DNA of 64,000 nucleotides, taken from positions 31,666-95,665 of the forward strand of contig CAVXFK010000002.1 in NCBI GenBank assembly GCA_963761005.1, given 5' to 3'. Shown here piece by piece: positions 6,543 to 22,294 of this stretch. The stretch is from an uncultured Alphaproteobacteria bacterium. Its GTDB lineage: Bacteria; Pseudomonadota; Alphaproteobacteria; Rhizobiales; Afifellaceae. The first letter of the stretch is position 1. Each line of letters starts with the position of its first letter. The notes beneath the pieces were generated by a model, which was not told the origin of the DNA, did no database searches, and was given only the letters and a program-made list of their open reading frames with translations. Made by a program: the position numbers and the translations under genes.

Positions 6543-6560
6543 CCGAGACGGGCCGACGCG

Positions 6561-7703
6561 ATGGGAATGGCAATCACCATTACGGTCATCTACGTCGCGG
6601 CCGTCTGGCTTGTCTTCTTCCGCTTCAAATGGCTGAAATTCAATTTCGTCTGGGGCGTGGTCTCGTTCTGGATCGGCTTCCACCTGCTGCTGATCTTCAT
6701 GATCGGCCTTCGATTCAACGCTCCCTACACGATCGATGCGCATCTGATCCGCAACACCATTCAGATCGTGCCTCGGCTTGAGGGGCCAACGCTCCTGAAG
6801 GAGGTGCTGGTCGAGGCAAATCAGCCGGTCAAGAAAGGCACGCCGCTCTACAAATTCGACACGACGATCTACGAGCAGAAGCTCGCCGCAGCCAAAGCCC
6901 AGCTCGCCGCCGCCGAGCAAAACACCAAGATCCTCGATACCGACGTCCAGGCGGCGCAGGATCAGCTTACCCAGGCACAGGCGCAGCTTGCCTACGCAAA
7001 ATCGCAGCAGAAGCGGTTCACCAACCTCTCCAGCCAGGGCGGCGCGCGCCAGGAGGATGTCGACAAGTGGAACGCCGAGGTGGAGGCGGATACGGCGGCA
7101 GCCTCCGCCGCGGAGGCCACGCTGCAGAAGGCGCAACTCGCCAAGGACAACAACATCGACGGCGTCAACACCAGCGTCGCCCAAGCGCGCGCGCAGGTGG
7201 CCGAGGCGCAGTACTACCTGGACCAGACCACCATCGTCGCGCCGACCGACGGCTACATCGTTTCGCAGCAGGCCTATCCCGGTCTCGTCGTCGGCGATTT
7301 CCGCGTCGGCGCCATTGCCGCCTTCATCACCGACAACCCGCCCTACATGCTCGGCGCCTTCTTCCAAGAACACATCAAGTTCGTGGAGCCGGGCCAACCG
7401 GTCGACATCGCGCTGGACATCGATCCAGGCAAGATTCTGACCGGCAAGGTGGAGGCGATCTGGTGGGCGACAGGCCAGGGCCAGTACGTCCCGTCCGGCA
7501 GGCTGCCGGACTTCATCCTCCCAAAGCTGCAAGGCAAGTTCGCGGTCCAAGTGGCGTTTGACGATCCCAATGCATTCCTGCCCGCCGGAGCGCACGGGGC
7601 GATCGCCATCTATCCCGGCCGAAGCGCCGCTTTCGAGTTGTTGCGGCGCATCAACATCCGCCTCTACAGCTGGGCGAATTTCATATTCCCGTTTGATCTC
7701 TGA
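6561..7703 (+). CDS. HlyD-family membrane fusion / periplasmic adaptor protein (YiaV-like)
   Basis: N-terminal TM segment, long coiled coil (AAAKAQLAAAEQ...), then TIVAPTDGYIVSQ barrel-sandwich motifs. Confidence 0.9.
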   Translation: MGMAITITVIYVAAVWLVFFRFKWLKFNFVWGVVSFWIGFHLLLIFMIGLRFNAPYTIDAHLIRNTIQIVPRLEGPTLLKEVLVEANQPVKKGTPLYKFDTTIYEQKLAAAKAQLAAAEQNTKILDTDVQAAQDQLTQAQAQLAYAKSQQKRFTNLSSQGGARQEDVDKWNAEVEADTAAASAAEATLQKAQLAKDNNIDGVNTSVAQARAQVAEAQYYLDQTTIVAPTDGYIVSQQAYPGLVVGDFRVGAIAAFITDNPPYMLGAFFQEHIKFVEPGQPVDIALDIDPGKILTGKVEAIWWATGQGQYVPSGRLPDFILPKLQGKFAVQVAFDDPNAFLPAGAHGAIAIYPGRSAAFELLRRINIRLYSWANFIFPFDL

Positions 7704-7795
7704 TTCGACGCAATGGGGGGCGACCTTAGCGAATGCGCGAGCGACAGCCACTGAAGCGCTGGCCTGAGGTGCGGAAGAAGGGACGAGGTCCGAGT

Positions 7796-9400
7796 ATGGC
7801 TGCCGGCTCGCTTGCTGCCGTCTGCCGCTACGCCTTGCCCGTTTTCGCGTCATCGTTCGTCGCCGGCTGCACGATGGTCGGGCCGGATTTCGTCACGCCG
7901 CTCGCGGCCGAGAAGGCCGGCTGGACCAGCGCCGGGAGCCCCGGCGTCAGCGCACGCAGCCAGCCGTCGATCGAATGGTGGAAGCGGCTTAACGATCCTG
8001 TCCTCGACAAGCTCGTCGATGTCGCCTTCGCGCAGAACCTGACACTCCAGATCGCCGCGGTGCGCATCTATCAGGCCCGAGCGCAACTCGGCATCGTTCT
8101 CGGCGACCGGTTTCCGCAAAGCCAGAAGGTCGGCGCCGGCTACAAGAAGGAATGGCTGTCGAAGGATGTCGGCGTCCTGAAGGAGATTTCCAAGATCGAT
8201 CCCTCCTTCGACCCGACGTTCGAGACGTGGTCGACCGGTTTCGACGCAAGCTGGGAGCTCGATCTCTGGGGCCAGGTGAGGCGCGGCATCCAGGCCGCGA
8301 CCGCCAACGTCGTTGTGCAGGTCGCCGACTACGACGATGTCCTCGTCACGCTCGTCGGCGACGTTGCGACCGCCTATGTCACGATCAGGGAACTGCAGGC
8401 GGAACTGGCTCTTGCCCAGGCGAACGTGACCACCCAGACCAAGAGCCTCCATCTCACCGAGGTGCGTTTCAAGAACGGGGTGACGACCGAGCTTGACGTC
8501 CAGGAAGCGACCGCCCTGCTCGACAACACGAAGGCCGAAATCCCTGCTTTGGAAGCAGATCTCGCCAAGGCGGAGAACGCGCTTGCGGTGCTTCTCGGCA
8601 TGCCGGCGGGCGACGTCGACGCGGCCGTTCGCCGGCCGCGAGCGATGCCCAATCCGCCCGCCAGGATCGGCGTCGGCATACCCGCCGACCTGCTTCGGCG
8701 CCGGCCGGACATTCGCGCCGCGGAGATGCGCGCGGCGGAGCAGTCCGCGCAGATCGGCGTCGCCCAAGCGGACCTCTATCCGCAGTTCGGCATCACAGGC
8801 TCAATCGGTTTGAAGGCGACCGACTTTCCCGACCTGTTCACGGGCGGCAGCCGCGCGGGCCTCTTCAATCCGGGGATATCCTGGAATTTCCTCAACTACG
8901 GCCGCATCCGCAACAATGTGCGCGTGCACGACGCCCGTTACCAGGAGGCGATCGTCAACTATCAGCAGACCGTGCTGAAGGCCTACAGCGAGGTTGAGGA
9001 CGCGCTTACGGCGTTCCTGAAGGCGAAAGAGCAGGCGGTGTATCTCGCACAGGCTTCCGCGGCAGCGGACAAGGCCGTCGGGATCGCGCTCGACCAGTAC
9101 GAACAGGGCACCGCCGACTATTCGCGCGTGCTCAACACGGAGACCGCTCTCCTTCACACGCAGCAGCGGCTCGCAGCAGTGCGCGCCGAGGTGCTGACGA
9201 ATTTGATCGCCGTCTACAAGGGACTGGGCGGTGGCTGGGAACCGGCGAATGCCGGACCGTTCATCTCAGACGCGAACCGGGAGGAGATGGCCAAGCGGAC
9301 CAAGTGGGGCCGGCTTCTTGATCCGGACGCGATCACGCCAACCGAGCGCTTGCTGAGGCCGACCTTGCCGACCGTCGACCCGGTGAATGCGACCCAGTAG
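7796..9400 (+). CDS. Efflux outer-membrane factor lipoprotein, NodT family
   Basis: Lipobox SFVAGC. WWKRLNDPVLDKLV motif. Two OEP repeats. Start taken at the ATG giving the lipoprotein signal. Confidence 0.9.
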   Translation: MAAGSLAAVCRYALPVFASSFVAGCTMVGPDFVTPLAAEKAGWTSAGSPGVSARSQPSIEWWKRLNDPVLDKLVDVAFAQNLTLQIAAVRIYQARAQLGIVLGDRFPQSQKVGAGYKKEWLSKDVGVLKEISKIDPSFDPTFETWSTGFDASWELDLWGQVRRGIQAATANVVVQVADYDDVLVTLVGDVATAYVTIRELQAELALAQANVTTQTKSLHLTEVRFKNGVTTELDVQEATALLDNTKAEIPALEADLAKAENALAVLLGMPAGDVDAAVRRPRAMPNPPARIGVGIPADLLRRRPDIRAAEMRAAEQSAQIGVAQADLYPQFGITGSIGLKATDFPDLFTGGSRAGLFNPGISWNFLNYGRIRNNVRVHDARYQEAIVNYQQTVLKAYSEVEDALTAFLKAKEQAVYLAQASAAADKAVGIALDQYEQGTADYSRVLNTETALLHTQQRLAAVRAEVLTNLIAVYKGLGGGWEPANAGPFISDANREEMAKRTKWGRLLDPDAITPTERLLRPTLPTVDPVNATQ

Positions 9401-9534
9401 GCGTCGGCTACACCTCAGATACTCCGGAGTTAGCGCAAGAGGCCCTGCCGACGTCTGACATCGTGAGCCATTGATCTCGGGCGCCAAAGAACCGAGGCTG
9501 GAGCCGCAACGTCTCGCTCAGGCGGCAGCTCTCA

Positions 9535-10944
9535 ATGGATCATCCGGTATCCGGGCCTCGAACGCGGGGTCGGAAGGCTAAGAAATCGCGGGCCCGCGCG
9601 CCGGCGAGCCGGGCGATACTGGCGCTTAACGCCTTCGATCCACGGCGCTCCAGAGACCTCGACAACTCGGTCGGAGCGCTGCTTGCGCGGCGGATTGGGA
9701 CTTTCGGCCCGATCTCGATGCTGTTCTACGACCGGCCGCTGCATTTCGTGCGGGGCGAGGGCGCGTGCATGTACGACGCCGAGGGGCATGCTTACCTCGA
9801 CGTCTACAACAACGTTCCGTCGGTCGGGCACGCGCATCCGCATGTGGTCGAGGCGATCGCCCGCCAGGCGGCGCTCCTGAACATCCACACCCGCTACCTG
9901 CATGAGACGGTGCTAGCCTATGCGGAGCGCCTTCTCGCGACGCTCCCCGCGCCGATCTCCAACATCGCCTTCACCTGCACGGGGAGCGAAAGCAACGATC
10001 TGGCGCTGCAGGTGGCACGCGCCGCCACCGGCGGAGAGGGCTTCGTCGTCACCGAGAACGCCTATCACGGCAACAGCTCGGCGGTGGTGGAGATATCGCC
10101 GTCGTCGACACCCGGCCGGCCGGCGGCGCGGCACGTGCGTTTCGTCCCGCCGCCCGACCCGCGCCGCGCTTCCGGTAAGAATGTCGGGGTGCGGTTCGCT
10201 GCCGATGTGCGCGCTGCAATCGAGGACCTTGAGGCGCACGGCATTCGCTTCGCCGCGCTGATCTTCGACAGCATCTTCTCCAGCGACGGAGTCTATGCCG
10301 ACCCGCCCGATTTGCTCAGGCTCGCCGTCAATGCCGCGCACAAGGCCGGCGGCCTTGTCATCGCCGACGAGGTGCAGCCGGGCTTCGGCCGCACTGGCAA
10401 GCATATGTGGGGCTTTGAGCGCCACAGAATAGCGCCCGACATGGTCACGATGGGAAAGCCGATGGGGAACGGCTACCCAATCGGCGCGGTCGCCGCGAGC
10501 CCGGCGCTCTTCAAGACGTTCACCGACGGCGTCGGCTATTTCAACACCTTCGGCGGCAGCCCGGTCGCGGCGGCGGCAGGGATGGCGGTGCTTGACGTGT
10601 TGGAAGGGGAGCGGCTCATCGCGAACGCCGGCAAGGTCGGTGCGCACCTTGCGCGGAATCTAGACGCTCTCGCCGCAAGCCATGAAGCGATCGGCGCGGT
10701 GCGCGGCGCGGGGCTCTATCTCGGCGTCGAGTTTGTCTCCGACCGCGAAGCGTGGGCGCCCGACCCGGCGACGGCGCGCCATGTCATCAATTTCCTGCGC
10801 GACAGGCGCATCCTGATCGGCGCCGCCGGGCCATATGGCAACGTGCTGAAGATCCGCCCGCCGCTTTGCTTCAGTACCGGTCAGGCGGATACGCTCGTCA
10901 CCGCGATCGACGCGGCGCTTACTCCGCGGCGACGACGTAGGTAA
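9535..10944 (+). CDS. Class-III (AGXT2L-like) PLP-dependent aminotransferase / putative phospho-lyase
   Basis: PLP-Lys motif VTMGKPMGNGYP, plus YFNTFGGSPV and NVLKIRPPLCF. The start is uncertain: the first ~30 aa are a basic extension not expected from homologues. Confidence 0.88.
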   Translation: MDHPVSGPRTRGRKAKKSRARAPASRAILALNAFDPRRSRDLDNSVGALLARRIGTFGPISMLFYDRPLHFVRGEGACMYDAEGHAYLDVYNNVPSVGHAHPHVVEAIARQAALLNIHTRYLHETVLAYAERLLATLPAPISNIAFTCTGSESNDLALQVARAATGGEGFVVTENAYHGNSSAVVEISPSSTPGRPAARHVRFVPPPDPRRASGKNVGVRFAADVRAAIEDLEAHGIRFAALIFDSIFSSDGVYADPPDLLRLAVNAAHKAGGLVIADEVQPGFGRTGKHMWGFERHRIAPDMVTMGKPMGNGYPIGAVAASPALFKTFTDGVGYFNTFGGSPVAAAAGMAVLDVLEGERLIANAGKVGAHLARNLDALAASHEAIGAVRGAGLYLGVEFVSDREAWAPDPATARHVINFLRDRRILIGAAGPYGNVLKIRPPLCFSTGQADTLVTAIDAALTPRRRRR

Positions 10945-10955
10945 AGGCGCACCTC

Positions 10956-11757
10956 ATGTCCAAGACGCAATACACCCTCGACGACGAATGGACGGCGGCA
11001 CGCGAACGGCTGACTCAACTCGAAGGACATTTGGATTCGGTGACCTTTGAGCACATGCAGAGGATTGGCGTTGGTGCCGGCTGGCGATGTCTGGAAGTCG
11101 GGGGAGGTGGCGGCTCCGTTGCCAAATGGCTGTGCGAGAAGGTCGGCGTAACCGGTCATGTGATGGCAACCGACCTCGACACCCGTTTCCTGGATGACTT
11201 GGACTACCCGCACCTTGAGGTACGACAGCACAATATCGAGCAGGATGACCTGCCGGAGGGTCAATTCGATCTGGTCCATACGCGGATCGTCATCGTTCAC
11301 CTCCACCAACAGAAGCGGGCGTTCAGGCAACTGATGCGGGCGGTGAGGCCGGGGCGGATGGATTCTTCTGGAAGAGCCCGATCATCTTACCACGATCGCT
11401 GACCCGGAAGCGACGCCCGCCGCGCAGGCGTTGTTCAACAAGGTCTTGGCGACCCAGCAGGAAGCCTTTCGGCAGCGTGGACAGGACGTGCACATCGGCA
11501 ATCGTCTCCTGGGCATCCTGCGCGCCGGCGGGTTCGATTCGCTCGGCGCCGAAGGAAGAACTAGAGTGTTCCAGGGTGGGTCTCCGGAGGTGGAGTTCCA
11601 CAGGCTGACCTATCGCCAGCTGCGCGATCTGATCCTGGCATCCGGCAATGTGAGCGCCGGTGAGTTCGATCAATTCATGGCACTGCTGGACGACAAATCC
11701 TTTGCCTTCAGATTCTTTCTGGTGATGTCTGCGTGGGGCCGCAAGCCGGTGAATTGA
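10956..11757 (+). pseudogene. Class I SAM-dependent methyltransferase, split by a +1 frameshift
   Basis: Motif I is CLEVGGGGGSV. Reading continues in another frame (GWILLEEPDHLTTIADPEATPAAQALFNKVLA) into ORF 11431-11757. The break is at the GGGG run 11351-11354. Confidence 0.75.
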
Positions 11758-11971
11758 AGGGAGGCGGTTTCACAGTGCGAGGTGCCGCGCATGCGATTGC
11801 CCCATGGGGCGATGTTTGCTGCCTGTCTTGGAGGATCTGGCAAACGGCATGATGCGGATGCGCCACGAGCCTATGCAGCGCGCACCTTGCAATTATAGAG
11901 GGCACGCGTCCGTGCCGTCCGCCTATGGATGCGCGTTCATGAGTCCACGACCCTAGAAGTATCGCCCGACT

Positions 11972-12790
11972 TCACGCGATGCACTCGCCGCCATCGACGA
12001 CGAGCGCATGCCCGGTCATGAAGGCGGAGCGATCCGACGCCAGGAACAGGATGGCCTCCGCGATCTCTTCGACGCTGGCGAAGCGGCCGAGCGGGATTTT
12101 CTTCGCCACATAGTCGAGAAGCGCCTGGCGCCCGCCCATCTGCCGCGTGAACGGATCGTTGAAGGGCGTGTCCACCCAGCCGGGACAGAGCGCGTTCACG
12201 CGGACATTGTATTTCCCGTAGTCGATGGCTATCTGCTTCACCATCGCGACCGCGGCGTGCTTCGAGGTCGCATAGGCGATCATGCCGGGATCGTAGAAGA
12301 CGCCGGAATTCGACGAGGTCACGATGATCGAGCCGCCGCCAGCTTCACGCATGTGCGGCATGACGAGGCGCGCGAGGGTGAAATGCGCCCGCACGTTGAT
12401 CCGCCACGATTGATCCATCCCGGGCGGATCGACGTCCTCGAGCGAGCCTTCGACCTGAACGCCGGCATGGCTGTGCAGGATATCGACGCGGCCGAACTCG
12501 GCGACAGCGCGCTCGACCAGCCGCGCAAGCGCCGGCTCGTCACCGACGTCGGTCGCGATCGCGATCGCCGTCCCGCCTTCTTCTGTGATCCGGCGGACGG
12601 TCTCTTCGCCCGCCGCGCGGTCGCGGTCGGCGACGACGAGACGCGCCCCTTCGCGCGCCATGATCTCCGCGCCGGCGCGGCCGATGCCGGAGCCAGCGCC
12701 GGTGACGATCGCCACCCTGTCCTTGAGGATCACGCGTTCCGCCCCTTGTCCGACCGGCAAGATGTGACAAGGTTGCGACCGCAATATCAA
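11972..12790 (-). CDS. SDR-family oxidoreductase
   Basis: TGAGSGIG and YATSK motifs. An alternative GTG start at 12733 is likelier than 12790. Confidence 0.9.
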   Translation of the reverse strand: MILRSQPCHILPVGQGAERVILKDRVAIVTGAGSGIGRAGAEIMAREGARLVVADRDRAAGEETVRRITEEGGTAIAIATDVGDEPALARLVERAVAEFGRVDILHSHAGVQVEGSLEDVDPPGMDQSWRINVRAHFTLARLVMPHMREAGGGSIIVTSSNSGVFYDPGMIAYATSKHAAVAMVKQIAIDYGKYNVRVNALCPGWVDTPFNDPFTRQMGGRQALLDYVAKKIPLGRFASVEEIAEAILFLASDRSAFMTGHALVVDGGECIA

Positions 12791-12809
12791 GCGTGGCTGG
12801 CCGGGCGAA

Positions 12810-13811
12810 ATGCAGTTCGACGATCTTCCTCACGAGCGCCAGCTCGAATGCCTCGGCGAGCTCGCCGCCGCGGCGCTCGATCGCTACGGGATCAAGGCCG
12901 CTGAGCCCCCAAAGCTCATCAATGTCTCGGAGAACGCGACCTACAAGGTGGTCGCTGACCGCGGCGAATACGCCCTTCGCGTGCATCGAGAGGGCTACCA
13001 CTCGCGGGCCGCCATCGCCTCGGAGCTTGCCTGGCTGCAGGCACTGCGTCGCGACGGCGTCGTGATCACCCCGATTCCGGTACCCGGTCGCGACGGCGAT
13101 CTGATCCAGGCAGTCGGGCACCCCGCGATGCCGCGTCCACGTCATGTCGTCCTCTCCGAATGGGAAGCGGGGAAGGAGCCTTCATCGACCGACCATCTTG
13201 TGGAAAAATTCGGCGTGCTCGGCGAGGTGACGGCGCGCATGCACAAGCATTCGGAGAGCTGGCAACGGCCGGAGAATTTCGAGCGCCTTACCTGGGACTT
13301 CGACACAAGCCTCGGCGAACGGCCGCATTGGGGGCGCTGGGCCGACGGCATGGGCATCGACAAGGCGAAGGCGGAGCTTTTTGGGCGCGCGATCGCGCTT
13401 ATCGGGCGGCGGCTCGACAAATTCGGCAAGGCGCCAGAGCGCTTCGGCTTGATCCATTGCGACATGCGCCTCGCCAATCTTCTGATCGACGGCGACACGG
13501 TGAAAGTGATCGACTTCGACGATTGCGGCTTCTCCTGGCACCTCTACGACGCGGCGACGGCGGTCTCCTTTTTCGAGCACGAGCCGCACGTTCCGGAGTT
13601 GCTTTCCGCGTGGATCGCCGGCTACCGCAAGGCGTTGCCGCTGCCGGCGGAGGACGAGGCGGAGATGCAGACCTTCGTCATGCTCCGCCGCATGCTGCTC
13701 GTCGCGTGGATCGGCTCGCATTCGGAGACAGACCTCGCGAAGTCGATGGGCGTCGCTTACACCGAAGCGACCGCGCCGATGTGCGAGGATTATTTGAAGA
13801 AGTTCGGGTGA
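12810..13811 (+). CDS. APH-fold phosphotransferase (small-molecule kinase; hydroxylysine/amino-alcohol kinase-like)
   Basis: HCDMRLANLL catalytic loop and VIDFDD metal-binding motif. 333 aa. Confidence 0.88.
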   Translation: MQFDDLPHERQLECLGELAAAALDRYGIKAAEPPKLINVSENATYKVVADRGEYALRVHREGYHSRAAIASELAWLQALRRDGVVITPIPVPGRDGDLIQAVGHPAMPRPRHVVLSEWEAGKEPSSTDHLVEKFGVLGEVTARMHKHSESWQRPENFERLTWDFDTSLGERPHWGRWADGMGIDKAKAELFGRAIALIGRRLDKFGKAPERFGLIHCDMRLANLLIDGDTVKVIDFDDCGFSWHLYDAATAVSFFEHEPHVPELLSAWIAGYRKALPLPAEDEAEMQTFVMLRRMLLVAWIGSHSETDLAKSMGVAYTEATAPMCEDYLKKFG

Positions 13812-13834
13812 GGGGGCAGCGCAGTCTCCACTGC

Positions 13835-13864
13835 GAACCTTCTCCCATGTTTGGGAGAAGGTTC
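13835..13864. terminator. Perfect 13-bp hairpin between convergent genes (bidirectional terminator candidate)
   Basis: GAACCTTCTCCCA-tgtt-TGGGAGAAGGTTC lies between the 13811 stop (+) and the 13872 stop (-). Confidence 0.65.
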
Positions 13865-13871
13865 GGTGTCG

Positions 13872-14639
13872 TCACGCATTCAACGCCTCGAGCGATTCCG
13901 GCAGGATCTGGCCGCCGTCGACGACGATGGTCTGGCCGGTGATGTAGGCGGCCTCCTTTGAAGCGAGGAAGAGTGCGGCGTAGCCGATATCCTCCACCGA
14001 GCCGAGCCGCTTCAGCGGGATCGAGGCGGCCATGGTCTTCAGGTAGTCCGCGCCGAGCCCTTCGAGCCCCTCGGTGACGATGTTGCCGGGCATCACCGCG
14101 TTGACGGTGATCCCGTATTTGGCGAGCTCGATTGCCGCGGTCTTGAGGAACCCGAGCTGGCCCGATTTCGAGGCGCCGTAATGGGTCCAGCCGGGAAAGC
14201 CGGTGATCGGACCGGTGATCGACGAGGTGATGACGATCCGGCCCTCGCCTGACTTCTTGAGATAAGGCACACAGGCTTTGACCGCCAGGAACGTGCCCTT
14301 GAGGTTCGTTGAGAGCACCTCGTCCCACTGTTCAGACGACATGTCCTCGATCTTCGCCTGCGGAAAGATGCCGGCATTGGCGCAGAGTATATCGATGCCG
14401 CCGCTCCGCTCGGCCGCGGTTGCCGCCATCTTCTCCAGCGACACGAGGTCGGTCACGTCAGCGGCGAAGGCGGACGTATCGCCGCCGATCGCCTTCGCCG
14501 AGGCTTCCGCCTGATCGGCGTGACGCGCGACGACCGTCACCTTCGCGCCGTTCTTCGCGAAGACGCGCGCAATCCCCTTGCCGATTCCCTTGCTCGCGCC
14601 GGTGACGACGACGGATTTCCCCTTCACCGATGTCAGCAT
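13872..14639 (-). CDS. SDR-family oxidoreductase (FabG-like)
   Basis: TGASKGIG and YGASK motifs. ATG at 14639 is preceded by GGGAGG. Confidence 0.9.
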   Translation of the reverse strand: MLTSVKGKSVVVTGASKGIGKGIARVFAKNGAKVTVVARHADQAEASAKAIGGDTSAFAADVTDLVSLEKMAATAAERSGGIDILCANAGIFPQAKIEDMSSEQWDEVLSTNLKGTFLAVKACVPYLKKSGEGRIVITSSITGPITGFPGWTHYGASKSGQLGFLKTAAIELAKYGITVNAVMPGNIVTEGLEGLGADYLKTMAASIPLKRLGSVEDIGYAALFLASKEAAYITGQTIVVDGGQILPESLEALNA

Positions 14640-14670
14640 CTGAGCCTCCCTTCGAACTTTGTTGCCGGCG

Positions 14671-15507
14671 TCAGGCCTCGGCTTCGACATCCACGTCGCG
14701 GCTAACACGTGAGCGGGCGCGTACGACGAGCGTCACCAGCGCGTATCCGCCGAGAAGCACGATAACGGCGCCTATCGTCGCGACCGTGCCGAGAACCGGG
14801 ACGCCGGGCGTATAGCCAGCCACCATCTTGGCATAGAGGAATTCCGGCACCGTCGTGTCGGCGCCGTCGGTGTAGAGCGAGAGCGGGAAGTTGCCCCAGG
14901 AGAGCAGGAACGCGAAGAGGCAGCCGGAGAAGATGCCGGGGAAGAGCACCGGCAATGTGATTTCCTTCAACACCTGCCAGCGCGATGCGCCGAGATCGAG
15001 GGCGGCTTCCTCGAGCGCCGGATCGAAGCTGTAGACCTGGATGGAGATGACCAGCGTCACGACCGGCACCACCCAGACAAGATGCGCAAAGACCGCCGAC
15101 TTCCAGGAGAGCGGAAGGCCGAGCGCGCTGAACCATAAGAGCAGCGCCAGCCCAAGCACCGATTGCGGGAAGAAGATCGGGAGCAGCACGAGTTTTTGGT
15201 AAAGCGAGCGGCCGCGCCAGTCGTAGCGCGCAAACGCAAGCGCGCCGAAGAAGGCGATCACGACGGAGACGACGGTGACGCAGAGCGCGATGCTGATCGA
15301 CGCGTTGAGGATCTGCCAGGTCTCGGTCGCGGCGAAAGTCTTCTTCCACCAGGTGATGCCCCAGCGCGGGACGGGAAAGAGGAAATAGCGGCTGTCGGTG
15401 AGCGAGGCGAGGGTGATGGCGGCGCTCGGCAGATAGAGGAAGAGTCCGACCGCGACCGTCCAGGCGATGATGAGCGCGCGCCATAGGCGCTGGCTGGGGC
15501 CGCTCAT
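14671..15507 (-). CDS. ABC transporter permease (PotC-like)
   Basis: Six-TM MalFG-type permease. ATGA overlap with the upstream permease. Confidence 0.9.
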   Translation of the reverse strand: MSGPSQRLWRALIIAWTVAVGLFLYLPSAAITLASLTDSRYFLFPVPRWGITWWKKTFAATETWQILNASISIALCVTVVSVVIAFFGALAFARYDWRGRSLYQKLVLLPIFFPQSVLGLALLLWFSALGLPLSWKSAVFAHLVWVVPVVTLVISIQVYSFDPALEEAALDLGASRWQVLKEITLPVLFPGIFSGCLFAFLLSWGNFPLSLYTDGADTTVPEFLYAKMVAGYTPGVPVLGTVATIGAVIVLLGGYALVTLVVRARSRVSRDVDVEAEA

Positions 15508-16370
15508 GTGGTCTTCCGCCGACCGAGAACGGTATCGAGGTCAAAGCGGCGCAAAACGAGAAGCACGAGGATTCCGACGACCAGCATGAGGAGCACGGCG
15601 AGCGCCGCCCCAAGCGGCCAGTTCTGTGCGTAGGTAAACGCGATCTCGATATCGTGCGTGATCGGAATCACCTTCTGGCCACCGAGCACCTTGGCCTCGG
15701 CGATGGCGCCGACGGCGAGCACGAAGGTAAGCAGGAAGCCTATGACGATGCCCGGCATCGAAAGTGGCAGCTCGACCTCGCGAAACACCTGCCAGCGGCT
15801 TGCGCCGAGGTCGAAGGCGGCTTCGCGCACCTCGTTCGGCACCATCGCCACCCCGAGCGACATCGGAAAGAGCATATAGGGCAGGTAGGTGTAGACCATG
15901 CCGAGGATGATCGCCGGCAGCGTGAACAGGATACTCTCCGGCTCGTAGCCGAAAAGCGCCTTCATGCTGCCGAGCAGGAGGCCGTTCTTGATGAGAAAGA
16001 GCACCCAGCCATAGAGGCGCACATTCTCCGACACGAAAAGCGGGATGACGAAGACCAGCGTCACCGCCATCGACCAGCGGCCGAACACGCGGTTCAGCCC
16101 ATAGGCGACGGGGTAGCAGATCAGGGCGAGGATGATGACGGTCAGCGTGGCAAGTCCGAGCGACCAGAGGAATGAGATGTAATTGGAGCTGGCGAAGATC
16201 GTCTCGTAGTTCTGGAGCGTCGGCGGCTGCCAGATGGAGAAGGTCCGCTCCGGCATGAAGCTGAAGGCAACGACCGCGATCAGCGGCGCGACAAAGCCGG
16301 TCAGGAAGAGCGCATAGAAGGGGAGCGCCGCGCGCGCGCCTGGTCCTAATCGCGCCGTCCCCCCCGCCAT
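15504..16370 (-). CDS. ABC transporter permease (PotB-like)
   Basis: MalFG-type permease containing the EAA-like loop (EAAFDLGASRWQVF). The ATG shares one base with the ATPase stop. Confidence 0.9.
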   Translation of the reverse strand: MAGGTARLGPGARAALPFYALFLTGFVAPLIAVVAFSFMPERTFSIWQPPTLQNYETIFASSNYISFLWSLGLATLTVIILALICYPVAYGLNRVFGRWSMAVTLVFVIPLFVSENVRLYGWVLFLIKNGLLLGSMKALFGYEPESILFTLPAIILGMVYTYLPYMLFPMSLGVAMVPNEVREAAFDLGASRWQVFREVELPLSMPGIVIGFLLTFVLAVGAIAEAKVLGGQKVIPITHDIEIAFTYAQNWPLGAALAVLLMLVVGILVLLVLRRFDLDTVLGRRKTT

Positions 16371-17470
16371 CAATCGCTCACAAGGATGGAGTCGCCCGAA
16401 TCCCAGCCGATCCGCACGACATCGTCGAGCTTTCCGGAATAGGCCTGCTGGCGGAGCTTCTCCACGATGAAGACCTGCTCGCCGACGCGCACCTGATACT
16501 GGATGCGCGAGCCGAGCGCGTATTCGTTGTAGAGGCGGCCTTCGAGGCTATTCTCGGCCTCTCCCGGCTCCGAGAGGAAGCGCACGGACTCCGGCCGGAT
16601 CACGAGGTGGCCGCTGGTCATGCCGTTCGCCGGCTTCGGCCCGTGGAAGGTCGCGTTGAAGTCGGTCGCGGCAAGCTTGCCGTCGGCAGCCACCTTCACC
16701 CGCAGGATGTTCACGTCGCCCATGAACTCGGAGACGAATTTCGTCTCCGGCGCGGTATAGATTTCGTTCGGTGTGCCGACCTGCACGAGCTTGCCGGCGC
16801 GCATCACGCCGATGCGGTCGCTCATCACCATCGCCTCTTCGAGGCTGTGCGTGATGTAGATGAAGGTCTTGTGCGTCTCGCGATGGATGTCCTTCAGCTC
16901 CTTCTCGAGCGTCTTGCGGAGCTTGTAGTCGATCGCAGAGAGCGGCTCGTCGAAGAACAGGATCTCCGGGTCGTAGGCGAGCGCGCGGGCGAGCGCGACG
17001 CGCTGTCGTTCGCCGCCGGAGCATTGCATCACGTTCTTGCCGAAATAGCTCTCCGGGAGCCGCAAGAGCCGCATGAGCTCGAGCGCCCGCGCCTTGCGTT
17101 CCGCAGCGGCGACGCCCTTGATCTTCAGCGGGAAGCCGATGTTCTCGCCGACAGATTTGTGCGGGAAGAGCGCCAGCGACTGGAACACCAGGCAGGTCGG
17201 GCGCCGGTTGGCCGGAACGTCGTTCACCGTCGTCCCGCGGATGCGAATCTCGCCTGAGGTTGGCGTCTCCAGTCCCGCCAGCATCCTGAGCAGCGTGGTC
17301 TTGCCCGAGCCGGACGGCCCGACGATCGTGACGAACTCGCCCTCCGCCACGTCGAGGTCGATCCCATCGACCGCACTGAAGTTTCCGAAGGTCTTCGTCA
17401 GCCCTCGAAGGGTGAGGATGTCCGGGCGCTCCGTCATCGATGCCGAAACCGCAGCCCTCTCGTTCCACAT
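16370..17470 (-). CDS. ABC transporter ATP-binding protein (PotA-like, single NBD plus TOBE-like tail)
   Basis: GPSGSGKTT, CSGGERQRVALARAL and ILFFDEP motifs. An alternative start is at 17437. Confidence 0.93.
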   Translation of the reverse strand: MWNERAAVSASMTERPDILTLRGLTKTFGNFSAVDGIDLDVAEGEFVTIVGPSGSGKTTLLRMLAGLETPTSGEIRIRGTTVNDVPANRRPTCLVFQSLALFPHKSVGENIGFPLKIKGVAAAERKARALELMRLLRLPESYFGKNVMQCSGGERQRVALARALAYDPEILFFDEPLSAIDYKLRKTLEKELKDIHRETHKTFIYITHSLEEAMVMSDRIGVMRAGKLVQVGTPNEIYTAPETKFVSEFMGDVNILRVKVAADGKLAATDFNATFHGPKPANGMTSGHLVIRPESVRFLSEPGEAENSLEGRLYNEYALGSRIQYQVRVGEQVFIVEKLRQQAYSGKLDDVVRIGWDSGDSILVSD

Positions 17471-17477
17471 GGAATTA

Positions 17478-17509
17478 GAAGGCCCTCGTGCCTGCGCACA
17501 AGGGCCTTC
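17478..17509 (-). terminator. Intercistronic stem-loop between the binding-protein and ATPase genes
   Basis: GAAGGCCCTCGTG-cctgcg-CACAAGGGCCTTC, with one mismatch. Partial terminator or mRNA stabiliser candidate. Confidence 0.4.
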
Positions 17510-17538
17510 GGTTGTCTAAAGACCCAAGGACCTAACGG

Positions 17539-18708
17539 TCACCCGCCGGAAGCCTCGCGCTTCGCCGCCGTCATGATGTCGAGCAGCTTGTCGTAGTCCG
17601 GGACAATGTCGTACTCGATCGAGGCCGTCATCTCCTCTTCCAGGCTGTCCCACTGGATCGCGTCGAGCTCGTCCGCGGTGAAGAGGTTGAAGCATTCCGG
17701 ATTGGCCATCTGCGCCACCGGATTGAAGGTGCCCTCGGCGAAGGCGACGACGTGTGCCGTCTTCGGATCCTGCACATATTGCAGGAACTCGACCGCGAGC
17801 GGCGAGAGGTCGGGATTGTTCACGGTCGATGTGACCTCGATCCACGAGACGCCACCCTTGCCGCCGGCCATAGGGCCCTTCTTCGGCGTGATGCCGCGCA
17901 CGTTCTTGTAGCCGTCGGCGCGCGCGGGCGAGGCGCTGTAAGTGCCGCCGGTCATGTGGAAGTCGATCTCGCCGGCCACGAACGCCTGGTTCATGGTGGC
18001 AATGTCGCCGACGAGCTTCGCGCCCTTGAACACGCGCTTCGCGGTGTCGGTGAACTTCGCCACCTGGTCGTCGGTGTGCTCGACGAAGGGGTCGAAGCCC
18101 GAGATGAGACAAATGTCGAAGACGTTCCAGTCGTCCAATTCAAGGATACCGTATTTTCCGTCGTTGGCCGGATCGTTCCAGAGGTCCCACCCCTGGTCCT
18201 CGGCGGTCGCGCGGCTGATCTTGTCGGTGTTGACCACGAACGAGTAGGGGCCGAAGCGCTGGCACATGCCGAGCAGCTCCTTGCCGTCGTCGCTCATCGC
18301 CCAGTGATAGGGCGGCGCGAACATCGGCAGCATCTTCGAGAAATAGGGCTCCATCTTCGCGCGGTCGAGCGGCTTGATCAGCCCCTCCGGATACATGACC
18401 TTCCGCGCCCAGGGATTGTTCACATTGATCAGGTCCCACACATTGATCTCGCCGGCTCTGAGCCGGTTGATCATCGTCGGGTCGTTGGTGAGCGACTCGG
18501 CCTTGACGGTCGCGCTCTTCATGGCGCGGAAGGGATCGAGCACCTGAGCTGAGTTGTAGCCCTCCCAGCAGAGGATGTTCAGCTCCTTCTCGCGCGCCGC
18601 AAGCGCGCTGCCGGCCGACCCGAAGGCGCCCGTCGCAAAGGCGGCCGCCATGGCCGTCGACCGCTCCATGAAAGTGCGCCGCGTGATCCCCTGTCTTGTC
18701 ATTGTCAT
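17539..18708 (-). CDS. ABC transporter periplasmic substrate-binding protein (PotD/PotF-like), Tat signal
   Basis: Twin-arginine signal ITRRTFMERSTAMAAAFATGAFGSAGSALA. Family-1 solute-binding protein; its size and position head the Pot-like operon. Confidence 0.9.
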   Translation of the reverse strand: MTMTRQGITRRTFMERSTAMAAAFATGAFGSAGSALAAREKELNILCWEGYNSAQVLDPFRAMKSATVKAESLTNDPTMINRLRAGEINVWDLINVNNPWARKVMYPEGLIKPLDRAKMEPYFSKMLPMFAPPYHWAMSDDGKELLGMCQRFGPYSFVVNTDKISRATAEDQGWDLWNDPANDGKYGILELDDWNVFDICLISGFDPFVEHTDDQVAKFTDTAKRVFKGAKLVGDIATMNQAFVAGEIDFHMTGGTYSASPARADGYKNVRGITPKKGPMAGGKGGVSWIEVTSTVNNPDLSPLAVEFLQYVQDPKTAHVVAFAEGTFNPVAQMANPECFNLFTADELDAIQWDSLEEEMTASIEYDIVPDYDKLLDIMTAAKREASGG

Positions 18709-18879
18709 CTCCCGCTTCCGCTGACGTTGCGCCGCATTTTCGCTCTTCGGCAGAAAAGCAAAATCCTTGCCAGAAGTGATGCATGGCGGGCCGCGTGCGG
18801 CAATAGCGACAGCCGACGTTATCTTTGCATTTGCGGGCGCTTGCAGCCTGGGCGTGCGCCGCCAAGCCGTCCTGGACCG

Positions 18880-19575
18880 TCAGTTGAGCCGCATCATCGT
18901 CTTCAGCTCGCTCGACGACATCACCTGGCAGTAGATCATGTTGATGATCTCAAGCTCCTTGTGATGCAGCTCGTCGGACCCGGCGGCGCAGCAATCCTCG
19001 ACGACGATCACGTTGTAGCTCTCGTCGGCGAGGCTCCGGACCGTGGAGGAGACGCACTGGTCGGTGAAGACGCCACAGCACACGACGTTGCGGATACCGA
19101 GATTATGGAGCAGCAGGCGGAGATTGCTTCCCGTCAGCGCGCTGTCGGTCATCTTCTCGACGACGATCTCGTCGCCGACCGGCTTCAGTTCGTCGACGAT
19201 CTGCGAGTCCCAGTCGTCGCGCGGCAGGAGCAGGTCGTTCCATCCCGGCTTTCGATGGCTCAACGAGCGCTCGCGCCCGTGGCGGGTCTGGCTCGCGATC
19301 CGGGCGAAAAGGCACGCAACGCCCTTCGCGCGGAAGCGGGTCAAAAGATCGCGCGTGTTTGGAACGAGCAGCGTCTCCATGCGCTCAAAGAAGGGCGTCC
19401 AGAGATCGTACGTCTCCTGTTCCTTGGGCGGGAGCGAGCCGCGGTCGGGCCGCTTGCGATAGGTGTTCTGGACGTCGATCACGAGGAGTGCCGTCTCCTC
19501 GGGCTTCAGCACAAAATCGGGGGGCTCTGGGGCGTCGCGGTAGTAGATCGAGCGATAGGCGGTCTTCCAGCTCAT
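18880..19575 (-). CDS. Isochorismatase-family cysteine hydrolase
   Basis: LLVIDVQN (Asp), VEKMTDSA (Lys) and FTDQCV (Cys) form the triad. The upstream part of the 491-aa ORF overlaps the dehydratase small subunit and is junk. Confidence 0.85.
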   Translation of the reverse strand: MSWKTAYRSIYYRDAPEPPDFVLKPEETALLVIDVQNTYRKRPDRGSLPPKEQETYDLWTPFFERMETLLVPNTRDLLTRFRAKGVACLFARIASQTRHGRERSLSHRKPGWNDLLLPRDDWDSQIVDELKPVGDEIVVEKMTDSALTGSNLRLLLHNLGIRNVVCCGVFTDQCVSSTVRSLADESYNVIVVEDCCAAGSDELHHKELEIINMIYCQVMSSSELKTMMRLN

Positions 19576-19604
19576 CGATTCCTGCGTCCCCGACCTGACC
19601 GGGA

Positions 19605-20033
19605 TCAAAAGCGGTAGGTAAAAAGGCCGCGCCGCTCGTAGACAGCGGCCGCCTCTTCGACGAAGCGCGCCATCAGCTCCGCCTTGTGCTCCTCTCGCAA
19701 TTTTCGGGCCGCTTCGAGGAGCGGCGCCTTGTCCTTGGCGCGGCCCGGGCGGAGCAGCTCGTAGACAGCCATGATGAAATCCTGCGGCACGTCGACCAGC
19801 TCCGCCGCGCGCTCGAAGTTCGCCGCGAGCATCGGCCGGCCAGCAGCGCGCGCGACCTCCGCCTGCATGCGGAGTGCGGCGGGCGTGATGCGAAGGTCTT
19901 CGAGCGCCACCTCGCCGGCAAGGAGCTTGTCGAGCGTGATCTCGTCGAGCGCCTTGCCGCGCCGGCCCTGGATCAGCTCCGGACGCTTCTCGGCGAGCGG
20001 GTAGTCGGCGACGCCTAGCGTGCGCTCGCCCAT
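19605..20033 (-). CDS. Diol/glycerol dehydratase small (gamma) subunit (PduE/DhaB3-like)
   Basis: DYPLAEKRPE, ITLDKLLAGEV, LRITPAALRMQA, NFERAAEL and LRPGR match the small-subunit pattern. It lacks the N-terminal extension. Confidence 0.9.
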   Translation of the reverse strand: MGERTLGVADYPLAEKRPELIQGRRGKALDEITLDKLLAGEVALEDLRITPAALRMQAEVARAAGRPMLAANFERAAELVDVPQDFIMAVYELLRPGRAKDKAPLLEAARKLREEHKAELMARFVEEAAAVYERRGLFTYRF

Positions 20034-22294
20034 TTCGGCGCTCCCGCATAGCTGACTGCGATCTCTTCCGGCGAGGCGCCGTCGACGACGAGCGACGTCT
20101 CGATCGCATAAAGAAGCGCCACGCGCGCGTGGTAGCGCGCGCCCATCGCCTCGCCGCGCGTCGGCACGACGACCGGCTCAGGCAACTTCCCGCGTGCATA
20201 GTGCGCCGCGTTCTTCCCGAGCGCGCGATAGTGCGCGAGCGTCGTGATCGGCGCGTTCGAGAAGAGCTCGAGATTGTTATGCGGGAGGCGGTCCTTCTGA
20301 TGGATGACCGCGGTGCCCTTCGCCTGGATGCCGATGCCGACGCCGGAGCCCGCAAGCCGCGCCGCGCTCAGGCCAAGGAACGAAGTGTCGGCGGTATGCA
20401 GCATGCGCACGATCCGCGCGGCAGCGCCGCCTTCCTCGATCCCTTCGACGAGTCCCTGCAGGAGCTCGGCGAGCGGAATGCCGCCGAGCGTGCGGAAGAA
20501 CTTGATGCCGAAGGCAGGCGAGACGCCGATCACTACTTCCGTCGGCGAGGTTCCGACCTTCGCGGGTCCCATCGTTCTGAAAGTGATGTCGGACGCGGCG
20601 TAACGCGCGAACTCTTCCTCCTGCGAGAGCACCGTCTCGCGGTCGAGCACGTCACGGATCGCGTGGATCTCCTGGCGCCGCGCCTCGGTGAGACGGTAGC
20701 CGGTACCGGGGCCGAGGTAGTCGTTCGGGTCGTTGACGGCGGAGAGGACTTTTCCGTCGCGGATGACCGCCGACGTCTGCAGATAGTCACCGGAGATTCT
20801 GAGCTTCACGAGCCAGAGCAGACTTTCCGCCTCCTCCTGGAAGCCACGCTTGGCAAGTGCCTTGATGACGTCGACGACGTTGATGCAGCGCGCCTTGATC
20901 TCCTCGGAGATCAGCGAGACATCGCGCGGCCGGTAGCTTTCGGTCTCATCCGAGCCTGAGGCGGTGAGAACGCTCGCCTTCATCGCCGCGGTCGGCACTC
21001 CGAGCGCCAACTCCTCGAACACCGCGGAGAGCGCGTCGAGCGCCCGGCGCCTCAGATCGAGGGCGCGATCTTCTAGGATCGGGGTCAGCCCTCCGTCCGC
21101 CTCGAAGTCGCGCTGCAGGACCAGAAAATCCTCCAGCTCCTCGCCGTTCAAAAGCGAGGGGTTGAAGGAGTTGTCGTATTTCAGGATCGATCCGAAGCCG
21201 GAGCAGATCAGGTCGGAGCCGGCGATCAGAAAAGGGAGGATCTTCGCACCGACTCGAATCTCCGACTCCGTCGAGCGCGCGTCATTGCCGCTTGCGCATT
21301 CGAGATCGAGCCAGACGGCGAGAAGGTTCTCCGCCATCAGCTCGCGTATGCCGCCGGGCACGGTCGCCGTCAGCGGGGCGCCATCGACGCCGCCGTTCTG
21401 CGTTCCCTGCACGCCCATGCCGCGCTGCAGGCAGAGGCAGCGTGCTTCCAGGTAGAGCAGCGACTTCGACTCATGGAAGCCCATGAGTAGCTCCGAGCCG
21501 GCGCCCGAGGTGCAGCGCATCTTGATGCCGCGTGAGGCGTAGGCGGAGGCGAGGAAGGCTTTCGACCACGGCGTGTCGTCGCCGTCGATGAAGGTGCGCT
21601 CCGTGCCGTAGACGGACACCGTCTCGGCGTAGGAGGTGAAGCCGGCCATGCCGATCTGCAGTTCCTCCGCCTCCTCGCTCGAGCATTGGAACAACGTTCC
21701 GGCGCGGCCGACCGCTGCGCCGACGCAGCAGGCAAGCGCGTTCGACCAAGCATTCCGCGAGACGCGCATCGTCGTCTCGATCTCGTCGAACCCGAGCGCC
21801 ACCGCGATCGCCGCGTCGGCCGCAAGCTGCAGCGGATCGTCCTTGGCGTTCGTCACATGCGCCTGGTTGCCGGGAGTCTTGCGCGCCCGCATTTTCGAAT
21901 AAGCGAAGGCAATCTCCATCGCCGAGAGCTCGGCGACGACCTCCGCCAGCTTCGCCGGCGTCATGCCGTGGGCCAAGCGCACGAGCTCGGTGCGCGGCAC
22001 GTTCATGTCGACCAGCATGCGCGCGATCTGAGGCGAGGGGATCGCCATCGCCTCCGGCGCGACCTTGGGGTCGATGTGGTAGCGCGCGATGAAGACATCG
22101 ATCATGTCGAACTCGGCGGCAGCAACGCCGTCCATCGCGGCGATGCGGCCGTCCTCGATGGCGATTCCGGGCTTTGGATCGTGCGGGCTGTTGAACGCCG
22201 CGAAGCCGTTGTCGGCATCCTCCACGGCGAACATGTCGAGCCGGAGCGGCCGCTCGTCCCAATCCGCAAACCGTCGCCAGCGATTGGCCGACAT
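20015..22294 (-). CDS. Fused large (alpha) plus medium (beta) subunit of AdoCbl-dependent diol/glycerol dehydratase
   Basis: The PduC-like part carries GNQAHVTN, GFDEIETT, GVQGTQNG, LDLECASGND, SDLICSGF. The PduD-like C-terminus carries VVIGVSPAFG, GSGVGIGIQAKGTAVIHQ, NLELFSNAP. ATG 22294 is preceded by GGAGAG. Confidence 0.9.
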   Translation of the reverse strand: MSANRWRRFADWDERPLRLDMFAVEDADNGFAAFNSPHDPKPGIAIEDGRIAAMDGVAAAEFDMIDVFIARYHIDPKVAPEAMAIPSPQIARMLVDMNVPRTELVRLAHGMTPAKLAEVVAELSAMEIAFAYSKMRARKTPGNQAHVTNAKDDPLQLAADAAIAVALGFDEIETTMRVSRNAWSNALACCVGAAVGRAGTLFQCSSEEAEELQIGMAGFTSYAETVSVYGTERTFIDGDDTPWSKAFLASAYASRGIKMRCTSGAGSELLMGFHESKSLLYLEARCLCLQRGMGVQGTQNGGVDGAPLTATVPGGIRELMAENLLAVWLDLECASGNDARSTESEIRVGAKILPFLIAGSDLICSGFGSILKYDNSFNPSLLNGEELEDFLVLQRDFEADGGLTPILEDRALDLRRRALDALSAVFEELALGVPTAAMKASVLTASGSDETESYRPRDVSLISEEIKARCINVVDVIKALAKRGFQEEAESLLWLVKLRISGDYLQTSAVIRDGKVLSAVNDPNDYLGPGTGYRLTEARRQEIHAIRDVLDRETVLSQEEEFARYAASDITFRTMGPAKVGTSPTEVVIGVSPAFGIKFFRTLGGIPLAELLQGLVEGIEEGGAAARIVRMLHTADTSFLGLSAARLAGSGVGIGIQAKGTAVIHQKDRLPHNNLELFSNAPITTLAHYRALGKNAAHYARGKLPEPVVVPTRGEAMGARYHARVALLYAIETSLVVDGASPEEIAVSYAGAPKWASAR

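Follow-up and report, generated by a model that had tools for sequence, protein, structure and literature searches.

Gene content and operon structure

We analyzed a 64-kb stretch of DNA from an uncultured alphaproteobacterium (contig CAVXFK010000002.1), referred to here as the window, with a focus on the block of genes at positions 9535-22294, in which predicted enzymes of 1-amino-2-propanol catabolism lie beside a B12-dependent diol/glycerol-type dehydratase and an amine-type importer. A previous reading made from the sequence alone (the sequence-only reading) had interpreted this block as a shell-less amino-alcohol or diol utilization cluster. With a gene map based on a codon-position GC filter, Pfam and NCBIfam, all of the genes that it had listed were recovered where it had placed them, and the five motifs that it had quoted were all found exactly. 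The genes of the block are as follows.

9535-10944, plus strand: class-III pyridoxal phosphate (PLP) enzyme (class-III aminotransferase, AGXT2L/ETNPPL type; Pfam Aminotran_3), probable amino-alcohol-phosphate phospho-lyase
10956-11757, plus strand: S-adenosylmethionine (SAM)-dependent methyltransferase, frameshifted (Pfam)
11972-12790, minus strand: SDR1, a generic short-chain dehydrogenase (SDR; Pfam adh_short), true start probably near 12733
12810-13811, plus strand: APH-fold kinase, predicted (S)-1-amino-2-propanol kinase orthologue (Pfam APH; PDB 6EF6)
13872-14639, minus strand: SDR, predicted (S)-1-amino-2-propanol/aminoacetone dehydrogenase (APDH) orthologue (PDB 6CI8/6CI9), last gene of the operon
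14671-15507, minus strand: PotC-like ATP-binding cassette (ABC) permease (Pfam BPD_transp_1; best NCBIfam model PotC, under the curated cut-off)
15504-16373, minus strand: PotB-like ABC permease (Pfam BPD_transp_1; best NCBIfam model PotB, under the curated cut-off)
16370-17470, minus strand: PotA-like ABC ATPase with a TOBE domain (Pfam ABC_tran and TOBE_2; best NCBIfam models PotA and PhnT2)
17539-18708, minus strand: periplasmic solute-binding protein (Pfam SBP_bac_8)
18880-19575, minus strand: isochorismatase-family cysteine hydrolase, amidase type (Pfam Isochorismatase)
19605-20033, minus strand: diol dehydratase small (gamma) subunit (Pfam Dehydratase_SU, E = 2e-46)
20015-22294, minus strand: B12-dependent diol/glycerol-type dehydratase, fused large and medium subunits, Asp301 subclass (Pfam LU and MU)

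From 22294 down to 13872, eight minus-strand genes run in the same direction. Their junctions vary between overlaps of 4-19 bases and a gap of 171 bases; the overlap of 19 bases is that of the small-subunit gene with the end of the large-subunit gene. Given this arrangement of overlaps and small gaps, they look like a single operon. A ribosome-binding site precedes the start ATG at 22294 as well as that at 14639, and both starts agree with homologues. Since a scan for promoter and terminator consensus sequences returned sites no commoner than in shuffled sequence, the limits of the operon are based on spacing and strand only. An Rfam scan of the whole window gave no match, hence no cobalamin riboswitch ahead of the dehydratase genes. 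As the SDR gene at 13872 closes this operon, we group it with the dehydratase and the importer and not with the kinase module; the module boundaries of the sequence-only reading hold for the placement of the genes and require correction for this second SDR.

The methyltransferase gene separates the aminotransferase gene from SDR1. Its reading frame breaks near 11390-11430, where a 148-amino acid (aa) part with a Methyltransf_11 domain, of the class-I SAM type, is followed by a 108-aa part in another frame. Close relatives of the block (loci L001 and L004-L006 of the survey described below) have no such gene at this place, the aminotransferase gene and SDR1 being directly adjacent; 10956-11757 is therefore a local insertion, a pseudogene or a sequencing error. 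A megablast search of the block against plasmids returned only short single-gene matches of 71-83% identity and no syntenic record.

Kinase, dehydrogenase and PLP enzyme

Among solved structures, the kinase at 12810-13811 matched 6EF6, the aminopropanol kinase of Mycobacterium smegmatis (PMC7314540), with E = 1e-88 across residues 18-331, the second-ranked structure scoring 3e-15. It is 50-51% identical to the kinases within actinobacterial RMM loci, and its catalytic loop HCDMRLANLL (residue 216) and metal-binding motif VIDFDD (residue 233) are present exactly. The gene is predicted to encode an (S)-1-amino-2-propanol kinase orthologue, which narrows its earlier description as an APH-fold small-molecule kinase. 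An exact-sequence look-up of the window kinase returned no record.

The SDR at 13872-14639 matched 6CI8/6CI9 with E = 2e-88, compared with about 1e-50 for generic SDRs. We take 6CI8/6CI9 to be the (S)-1-amino-2-propanol dehydrogenase (APDH) of M. smegmatis. In the 2018 paper on that enzyme, aminoacetone is reportedly enclosed by Thr145, Glu251, Phe95, Trp154 and Leu195, and all five residues are identical in the window SDR when it is aligned to 6CI8. The protein is a predicted aminopropanol/aminoacetone dehydrogenase orthologue; the SDR-type amino-alcohol dehydrogenase anticipated by the sequence-only reading is accordingly present. For SDR1, a search against solved structures found no specific relative. 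It is 54% identical to the SDR in a dehydratase-kinase-lyase operon of Agrobacterium plasmid pO132a. Its counterparts in L001, L002 and L004-L006, the closest loci, are 81-92% identical.

The PLP enzyme at 9535-10944 (Pfam Aminotran_3, E = 3e-70) carries the motifs VTMGKPMGNGYP (residue 304), YFNTFGGSPV (335) and NVLKIRPPLCF (436) exactly. Its closest solved relatives are two phospho-lyases, 5G4I (Arthrobacter A1RDF1; E = 1e-107) and 6TOR (human ETNPPL; E = 3e-102), and the next match, the best transaminase, decarboxylase or racemase, follows at E = 1e-46. The alignments with A1RDF1 and human ETNPPL are full-length and include the three motifs, the PLP-binding lysine of VTMGKPMGNGYP falling at the identical motif position in 5G4I and 6TOR. 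The best NCBIfam models are PRK06148 and PRK06149, which describe natural kinase-aminotransferase fusions. An Agrobacterium orthologue, 49% identical, directly follows a kinase gene and overlaps its stop; in the window the two genes lie 1.9 kb apart and are not adjacent. The enzyme had been likened to the AGXT2L branch in the sequence-only reading, and its ranking against solved structures agrees with this. It is likely an amino-alcohol-phosphate phospho-lyase.

A second, RMM-type class-III PLP enzyme, which we label AT2, occurs in related loci. AT2 of the alphaproteobacterial shell loci is 60-62% identical to the actinobacterial RMM-locus enzyme, and its closest solved relative is a putrescine aminotransferase. 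These two non-orthologous class-III PLP enzymes, the AGXT2L/ETNPPL type and AT2, alternate beside the aminopropanol kinase (L003, L054, L065, L067, L073, L076, L080, L085, L086 and L091), and the shell-bearing loci carry the AT2 type.

The Asp301 dehydratase and its gene neighborhoods

The large and medium subunits of the dehydratase are fused into a single 759-aa protein with Pfam LU and MU domains, and the SU domain is encoded by the next gene. The fused protein aligned end to end with the glycerol dehydratase of Klebsiella pneumoniae, and its best tblastn matches to plasmid-borne enterobacterial PduC/PduD were 46-50% identical. In diol dehydratase numbering, by which Asp301 and Ala336 correspond to D304 and A339 of the window protein, the Ca2+ and catalytic residues are all conserved (Gln141, His143, Glu170, Glu221, Thr222, Gln296, Asp335, Ser362 and Phe374). 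The window enzyme shares these residues and the same three domains with PduCDE, PddABC and DhaB123, but differs from them in the large/medium fusion, in five substitutions (Ser301Asp, Ile303Ala, Ala315Glu, Trp23Asp and Gln336Ala) and in the lack of a pdu- or dha-type neighborhood. Two of the substitutions, Ser301 to Asp and Gln336 to Ala, alter pocket residues that face substrate C3. Glycerol binds to the solved enzyme in two modes, its C3 hydroxyl facing Ser301 in one and Asp335 in the other, and the mutations Ser301Ala and Gln336Ala change both substrate preference and inactivation (PMC7674605). Given this different C3 pocket, the earlier assumption that the window dehydratase makes the same class of aldehyde from vicinal diols as an ordinary enzyme is not supported.

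An exhaustive search of cluster representatives separated three classes of dehydratase by residues 301 and 336: Ser/Gln, the canonical PduC and DhaB type; Ser/Ala, which takes in fused forms; and Asp combined with Ala, Thr, Ser or Asn. Asp301 and Ala336 are invariant in 73 alphaproteobacterial homologues. Asp301 is likewise invariant in 119 actinobacterial homologues, 113 of which have Ala and six Ser at position 336. Only four alpha-subunit positions (Trp23 to Asp, Ser301 to Asp, Ile303 to Ala and Ala315 to Glu) are class-specific, meaning that the Asp-class proteins of both phyla share one fixed residue there, which differs from that of both other classes. Three of the four changes introduce an acidic side chain.

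The surroundings of this subclass were examined by a one-genome-per-species scan with the fused dehydratase, which returned more than 543 relatives. The best 80 of these, 75-91% identical, are all alphaproteobacterial and come from Bauldia, Methyloceanibacter, Hyphomicrobium, Aestuariivirga, Propylenella, Dongia, Ferrovibrio and many uncultured lineages. Gene presence was scored by tblastn and clustering of open reading frames (ORFs) in 56 informative loci, that is, alphaproteobacterial loci in which 8 kb or more of sequence follows the dehydratase gene, with the following results.

Small subunit beside the dehydratase: 55 of 56 loci
Amine-type transporter: 55 of 56 (37 Pot-like ABC importers and 19 APC permeases, one locus having both)
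Dehydrogenase orthologue: 51 of 56
Kinase: 43 of 56
Dehydrogenase and kinase together: 42 of 56
Amidase-type hydrolase: 50 of 56 (44 of the isochorismatase type, 14 of the GATase/peptidase C26 type)
AraC regulator: 26 of 56
Microcompartment shell genes: 14 of 56
Reactivase: 0 of 56

The reactivase (DdrAB/PduGH, Pfam DDR) was also absent from the window, and tblastn found none in the window or in any of the 80 fetched alphaproteobacterial loci, a copy elsewhere in the genome being possible. Both actinobacterial loci L085 and L086 carry one. On sequence grounds, the Asp301 dehydratases form a distinct subclass with a near-obligate link to amine uptake in two phyla and an apparent loss of the reactivase in Alphaproteobacteria; the subclass, the link and the loss are all new as far as the literature covered shows.

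Dozens of Hyphomicrobiales and Rhodospirillales species carry the gene set between unrelated flanking genes, and Actinobacteria carry it rearranged. Among the kinase neighborhoods, L001 (kinase 87% identical) holds the whole block between unrelated flanks, L002 (81%) has the same genes with an APC amino-acid permease in place of the ABC importer and no hydrolase, and L003 has the aminotransferase and kinase only. The three modules that the sequence-only reading had joined into one block were thus found together in many related genomes. A self-contained operon, whose flanks differ between plasmids, occurs on pO132a of Agrobacterium cucumeris and on a plasmid of Shinella zoogloeoides. It comprises components of a sugar-type ABC importer (CUT1), a fused Asp/Thr dehydratase, the small subunit, UgpC and the SDR related to SDR1, and continues with an AGPHD1-like kinase, the phospho-lyase-type enzyme related to that of the window and a GntR regulator.

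In the shell-less actinobacterial locus of Dactylosporangium (L085), genes for an SDR, the fused dehydratase, the small subunit and the reactivase adjoin those for GntR, an SDR, the kinase and AT2, and an APC permease and an FmdA/AmdA amidase are encoded alongside the dehydratase. Microbispora (L086) has a complete RMM locus with shells, divergent from an APC permease-FmdA/AmdA amidase-dehydratase-reactivase operon. At a third actinobacterial locus, the dehydratase adjoins an amino-acid-type ABC importer only. As a control, we inspected two Ser/Ala-class fused dehydratases from Thermoleophilia-like genomes. They lie with an SDR, a fumarylacetoacetase-family hydrolase, an aldehyde dehydrogenase and an epimerase, and neither of these two Ser301/Ala336 loci has the kinase, the aminotransferase or an amine importer.

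The binding protein at 17539-18708 had no sequence match among solved structures; it is conserved at 58-96% identity in 36 of the 56 loci. The Asp-Lys-Cys triad of the isochorismatase-type hydrolase aligns with Asp, Lys142 and Cys of the biuret hydrolase 6AZO, a Lys142Ala mutant entry marking the lysine column, and orthologues of this hydrolase account for the 44 loci listed above. The nearest relative of the window, L004, whose dehydratase is 91% identical, possesses an FmdA/AmdA-like amidase gene (9141-9902) immediately upstream of the dehydratase gene as well as the isochorismatase-type hydrolase; in the window, this upstream position is occupied by a divergent ABC ATPase gene.

Further genes accompany the block in some lineages. 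In six Hyphomicrobium/Methyloceanibacter loci (L016-L018, L022, L030 and L039), genes for an acyl-CoA synthetase of the acetyl/propionyl-CoA synthetase family and an extra SDR adjoin the phospho-lyase-type gene, divergent from the dehydratase, which fits propionate as an end product. In Hyphomicrobium loci L026, L029 and L051, genes for an NAD-dependent aldehyde dehydrogenase and ABC permeases follow the kinase gene at about 18500-21700. By eye, this aldehyde dehydrogenase strongly resembles the gamma-aminobutyraldehyde dehydrogenase PatD of Escherichia coli and could be an amino-aldehyde sink.

Microcompartments, proposed function and alternatives

As the sequence-only reading had proposed, the system in the 64-kb window is shell-less. 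Neither tblastn with the shell proteins of related loci nor a scan of the ORFs for Pfam BMC/EutN domains detected shell genes (BMC-H, BMC-T or BMC-P) in the 64 kb. An acylating aldehyde dehydrogenase was also not found there, as judged by the absence of an Aldedh domain in the scanned ORFs and of a tblastn match. In the 14 shell-bearing loci and in L091, the transporter/dehydrogenase operon adjoins genes for BMC-T, BMC-H, BMC-P, an acylating aldehyde dehydrogenase, an AraC regulator, the kinase and AT2. BMC-H of Microbispora L086 (2728-2988) is about 81% identical to alphaproteobacterial counterparts (e.g., L049 20256-20585), and BMC-T about 68%. Because these identities are far above the expectation from the distance between the phyla, they suggest that the shell module was horizontally transferred between them.

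The individual steps of such a pathway have a long history. The route by amino-alcohol kinase and phospho-lyase is said to have been described biochemically in Pseudomonas by the Turner laboratory in the 1970s, and Veiga-da-Cunha and colleagues reportedly described in 2012 the animal hydroxylysine kinase (AGPHD1) with the AGXT2L1/AGXT2L2 phospho-lyases. Mallette and Kimber are said to have assigned the dehydrogenase/kinase/lyase route to the RMM/AAUM microcompartment in 2018 and to have proposed versions outside a compartment. Axen et al. (2014; PMC4207490) had defined RMM2 (RMM2/PDU2) loci as RMM1 with diol dehydratase genes on the opposite strand and left open whether the compartment is bifunctional. 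According to the supplement of Sutter et al. (2021), just 4 of 32 RMM2/AAUM2 loci had PDU enzymes nearby, and these were considered unlikely to be important. Beyond Axen et al. and two reviews, we found no literature linking a diol dehydratase with aminoacetone. The kinase/lyase/dehydrogenase core is thus already known, and the association with the dehydratase is on record but was dismissed. The sequence-only reading is supported in part: the window holds an amino-alcohol cluster, and a conserved one, but the combination is not undescribed, since the RMM2/PDU2 locus type had been recorded, and its dehydratase is not an ordinary one in its C3 pocket.

The block resembles the RMM/AAUM loci of Mycobacterium and Rhodococcus and proteobacterial RMM2/AAUM2 in its orthologous aminopropanol dehydrogenase and kinase, its amine importer and a class-III PLP enzyme encoded near the kinase. 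RMM2/PDU2 shares with it the diol dehydratase genes on the opposite strand, and shells are kept in alphaproteobacterial relatives of the window operon. Unlike RMM/AAUM, the window lacks shells and an acylating aldehyde dehydrogenase, has no GntR or AraC gene within the cluster, has a PLP enzyme of the AGXT2L/ETNPPL type and a Pot-type ABC importer instead of a GabP-type permease, and possesses an extra SDR and an isochorismatase-type amidase. With the Pseudomonas and animal routes it shares a logic in which the hydroxyl beside the amine is phosphorylated and a PLP-dependent elimination yields aldehyde, ammonia and phosphate. The window kinase belongs to the aminopropanol-kinase branch of the APH fold, whereas the animal enzyme and the Agrobacterium/Shinella operons represent the AGPHD1-like branch.

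Taken together, our findings suggest, with a probability of about 0.6, that block 9535-22294 is a shell-less alphaproteobacterial aminoacetone/1-amino-2-propanol catabolic system with a feeder operon. The dehydrogenase at 13872 would reduce aminoacetone to (S)-1-amino-2-propanol, the kinase at 12810 would phosphorylate it, and the PLP phospho-lyase at 9535 would convert aminopropanol O-phosphate to propionaldehyde, ammonia and phosphate. The feeder operon, running from 22294 to 13872, would take up small amino-alcohols or amino-diols, partly as amides from which the amidase would free them. Its dehydratase would act on a vicinal diol with an adjacent cationic (amino) group, such as 3-amino-1,2-propanediol, and not on plain propanediol. 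It is well supported that the genes form a conserved small amino-alcohol system whose end steps are those of dehydrogenase, kinase and phospho-lyase, with or without shells. We suspect that the dehydratase substrate is an amine-bearing diol, for which 3-amino-1,2-propanediol is the simplest candidate, because the pocket is acidic, an amine importer from one of three unrelated families is nearly universal, non-homologous amidases recur and the Rhizobiaceae operon has a single importer. The non-homologous amidases suggest amide precursors. A broader proposal, which we offer tentatively, is that the Asp301 dehydratases are a separate adenosylcobalamin class for amino-diols (3-amino-1,2-propanediol and longer amino-polyols), often supplied as amides and funneled into deamination by kinase and phospho-lyase, a radical route that in Alphaproteobacteria would dispense with a dedicated reactivase and, in many cases, with a microcompartment.

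Several observations weigh against the proposed aminoacetone/1-amino-2-propanol system and its amino-diol feeder. Dehydration of 3-amino-1,2-propanediol with normal regiochemistry would give 3-aminopropanal, which would not feed into a dehydrogenase that fits aminoacetone. Given that the Ser301Ala and Gln336Ala mutants resist inactivation by glycerol (PMC7674605) and that the alphaproteobacterial loci have no reactivase, Asp301 may serve a purpose other than amino-diol specificity. A Paracoccus with an RMM2 locus has been reported to grow on 1,2-propanediol. The window PLP enzyme is not of the RMM-locus type, being only 28-31% identical to AT2. AGXT2-type true transaminases, which have no solved structure, also model best on 5G4I (PMC6750192), so that a true transaminase could give this same ranking against solved structures. 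The cluster in the window is without any regulator gene, neither GntR nor AraC being present. The aminotransferase gene, SDR1, the kinase gene and the long operon are, moreover, separate transcription units. This last arrangement and the broken methyltransferase gene that interrupts the block are what could be expected if three unrelated catabolic modules had come to lie side by side by chance. That explanation is scarcely credible, as the same gene set recurs in dozens of Hyphomicrobiales and Rhodospirillales species and, reordered, in Actinobacteria.

Two other explanations keep the genes together but assign the dehydratase a different role. It is possible, though we doubt it, that the enzyme is an ordinary 1,2-propanediol/glycerol dehydratase, that propanediol and aminopropanol are separately converted to propionaldehyde and that the genes cluster through shared aldehyde handling or regulation. 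The wholly canonical catalytic and Ca2+ residues, the established chemistry leading to propionaldehyde from both substrates, the bifunctional compartment considered in 2014, the growth of the RMM2-carrying Paracoccus and the acetyl/propionyl-CoA synthetase-family gene adjoining the cluster in Hyphomicrobium-/Methyloceanibacter-type loci are all consistent with this, and the pocket changes might serve resistance to inactivation where the reactivase is missing. Against it stand the Asp at position 301, which is invariant in two phyla and absent from the two other dehydratase classes, and the amine-type transporter, which adjoins the dehydratase in 55 of 56 loci, including those that lack the kinase and lyase genes. 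The Rhizobiaceae operon has one importer for dehydratase, SDR, kinase and lyase, the Ser301-class fused dehydratases lack such partners in both loci examined, and no propanediol-specific genes (PduF, PduL, PduP or PduQ types) were seen.

The other explanation, which we consider unlikely, is a single linear pathway in which an imported amino-diol, e.g., 3-amino-1,2-propanediol, is converted to aminoacetone by the B12 enzyme and then reduced, phosphorylated and cleaved to propionaldehyde, so that all conserved genes serve one substrate. It would use these genes in order, agrees with the conservation of the dehydrogenase pocket for aminoacetone and would explain why dehydratase, transporter and dehydrogenase are, as predicted from gene arrangement, co-transcribed in the window and most loci. 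The compact one-importer operon of Agrobacterium and Shinella fits a single substrate, and the three unrelated transporter families (Pot-type, APC and the sugar/polyol-type CUT1) fit a molecule that is both amine and polyol. The chemistry is the obstacle, since hydrogen would be taken from the secondary carbinol and the primary hydroxyl lost. To our knowledge, no B12 diol dehydratase removes the primary hydroxyl of a terminal diol, and such a reaction would be unprecedented for these enzymes. Asp301 is positioned at the substituent of the carbon that loses its hydroxyl (PMC7674605); normal regiochemistry is therefore predicted, giving 3-aminopropanal and not aminoacetone. The linear pathway would also spend ATP and NAD(P)H, and the Rhizobiaceae operon has a different SDR and kinase subfamily, so that intermediates may differ by lineage.

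Four further schemes were considered and rejected. Action of kinase and lyase first on 3-amino-1,2-propanediol would yield 3-hydroxypropanal and leave the dehydratase without a role. Conversion of serinol via hydroxyacetone to propanediol does not need Asp301. Were the dehydratase to act on 1-amino-2-propanol itself, the amine would lie at the Ca2+ site and not near Asp301. A PatD-like aminoaldehyde dehydrogenase as a sink for 3-aminopropanal is encoded in only the three Hyphomicrobium loci mentioned above.

The presence of dehydratase genes beside aminoacetone microcompartment genes has been a puzzle since 2014 and was set aside as incidental in 2021. Viewed from the side of the dehydratase, the pairing is nearly obligate for a single subclass found in two phyla, whether shells are present or not, and this subclass has an acidic residue at the site of the substrate C3 substituent. 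If our proposal of an amine-bearing diol substrate is true, B12 diol dehydratases would gain a new class of substrate. The shell-bearing and shell-less versions of one predicted aldehyde-producing pathway also offer a natural comparison on why microcompartments are needed.

Elsewhere in the window, a tripartite efflux operon (6147-9400, plus strand) encodes a DUF3302 protein, an HlyD-type membrane-fusion protein and an outer-membrane efflux protein. Between the end of this operon and the aminotransferase gene lie 135 bases, in which no terminator was recognized. An X-Pro dipeptidyl-peptidase (S15, CocE/NonD-type) hydrolase appears to be split into a catalytic part (45479-46168, plus strand) and a PepX_C part (46293-47252, plus strand), which may reflect a frameshift or a pseudogene. 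At 48639-51230 (plus strand), an 863-aa ORF fuses a two-domain ABC ATPase with a BPD_transp_2 permease domain, an unusual arrangement for an importer of the sugar/branched-chain type.

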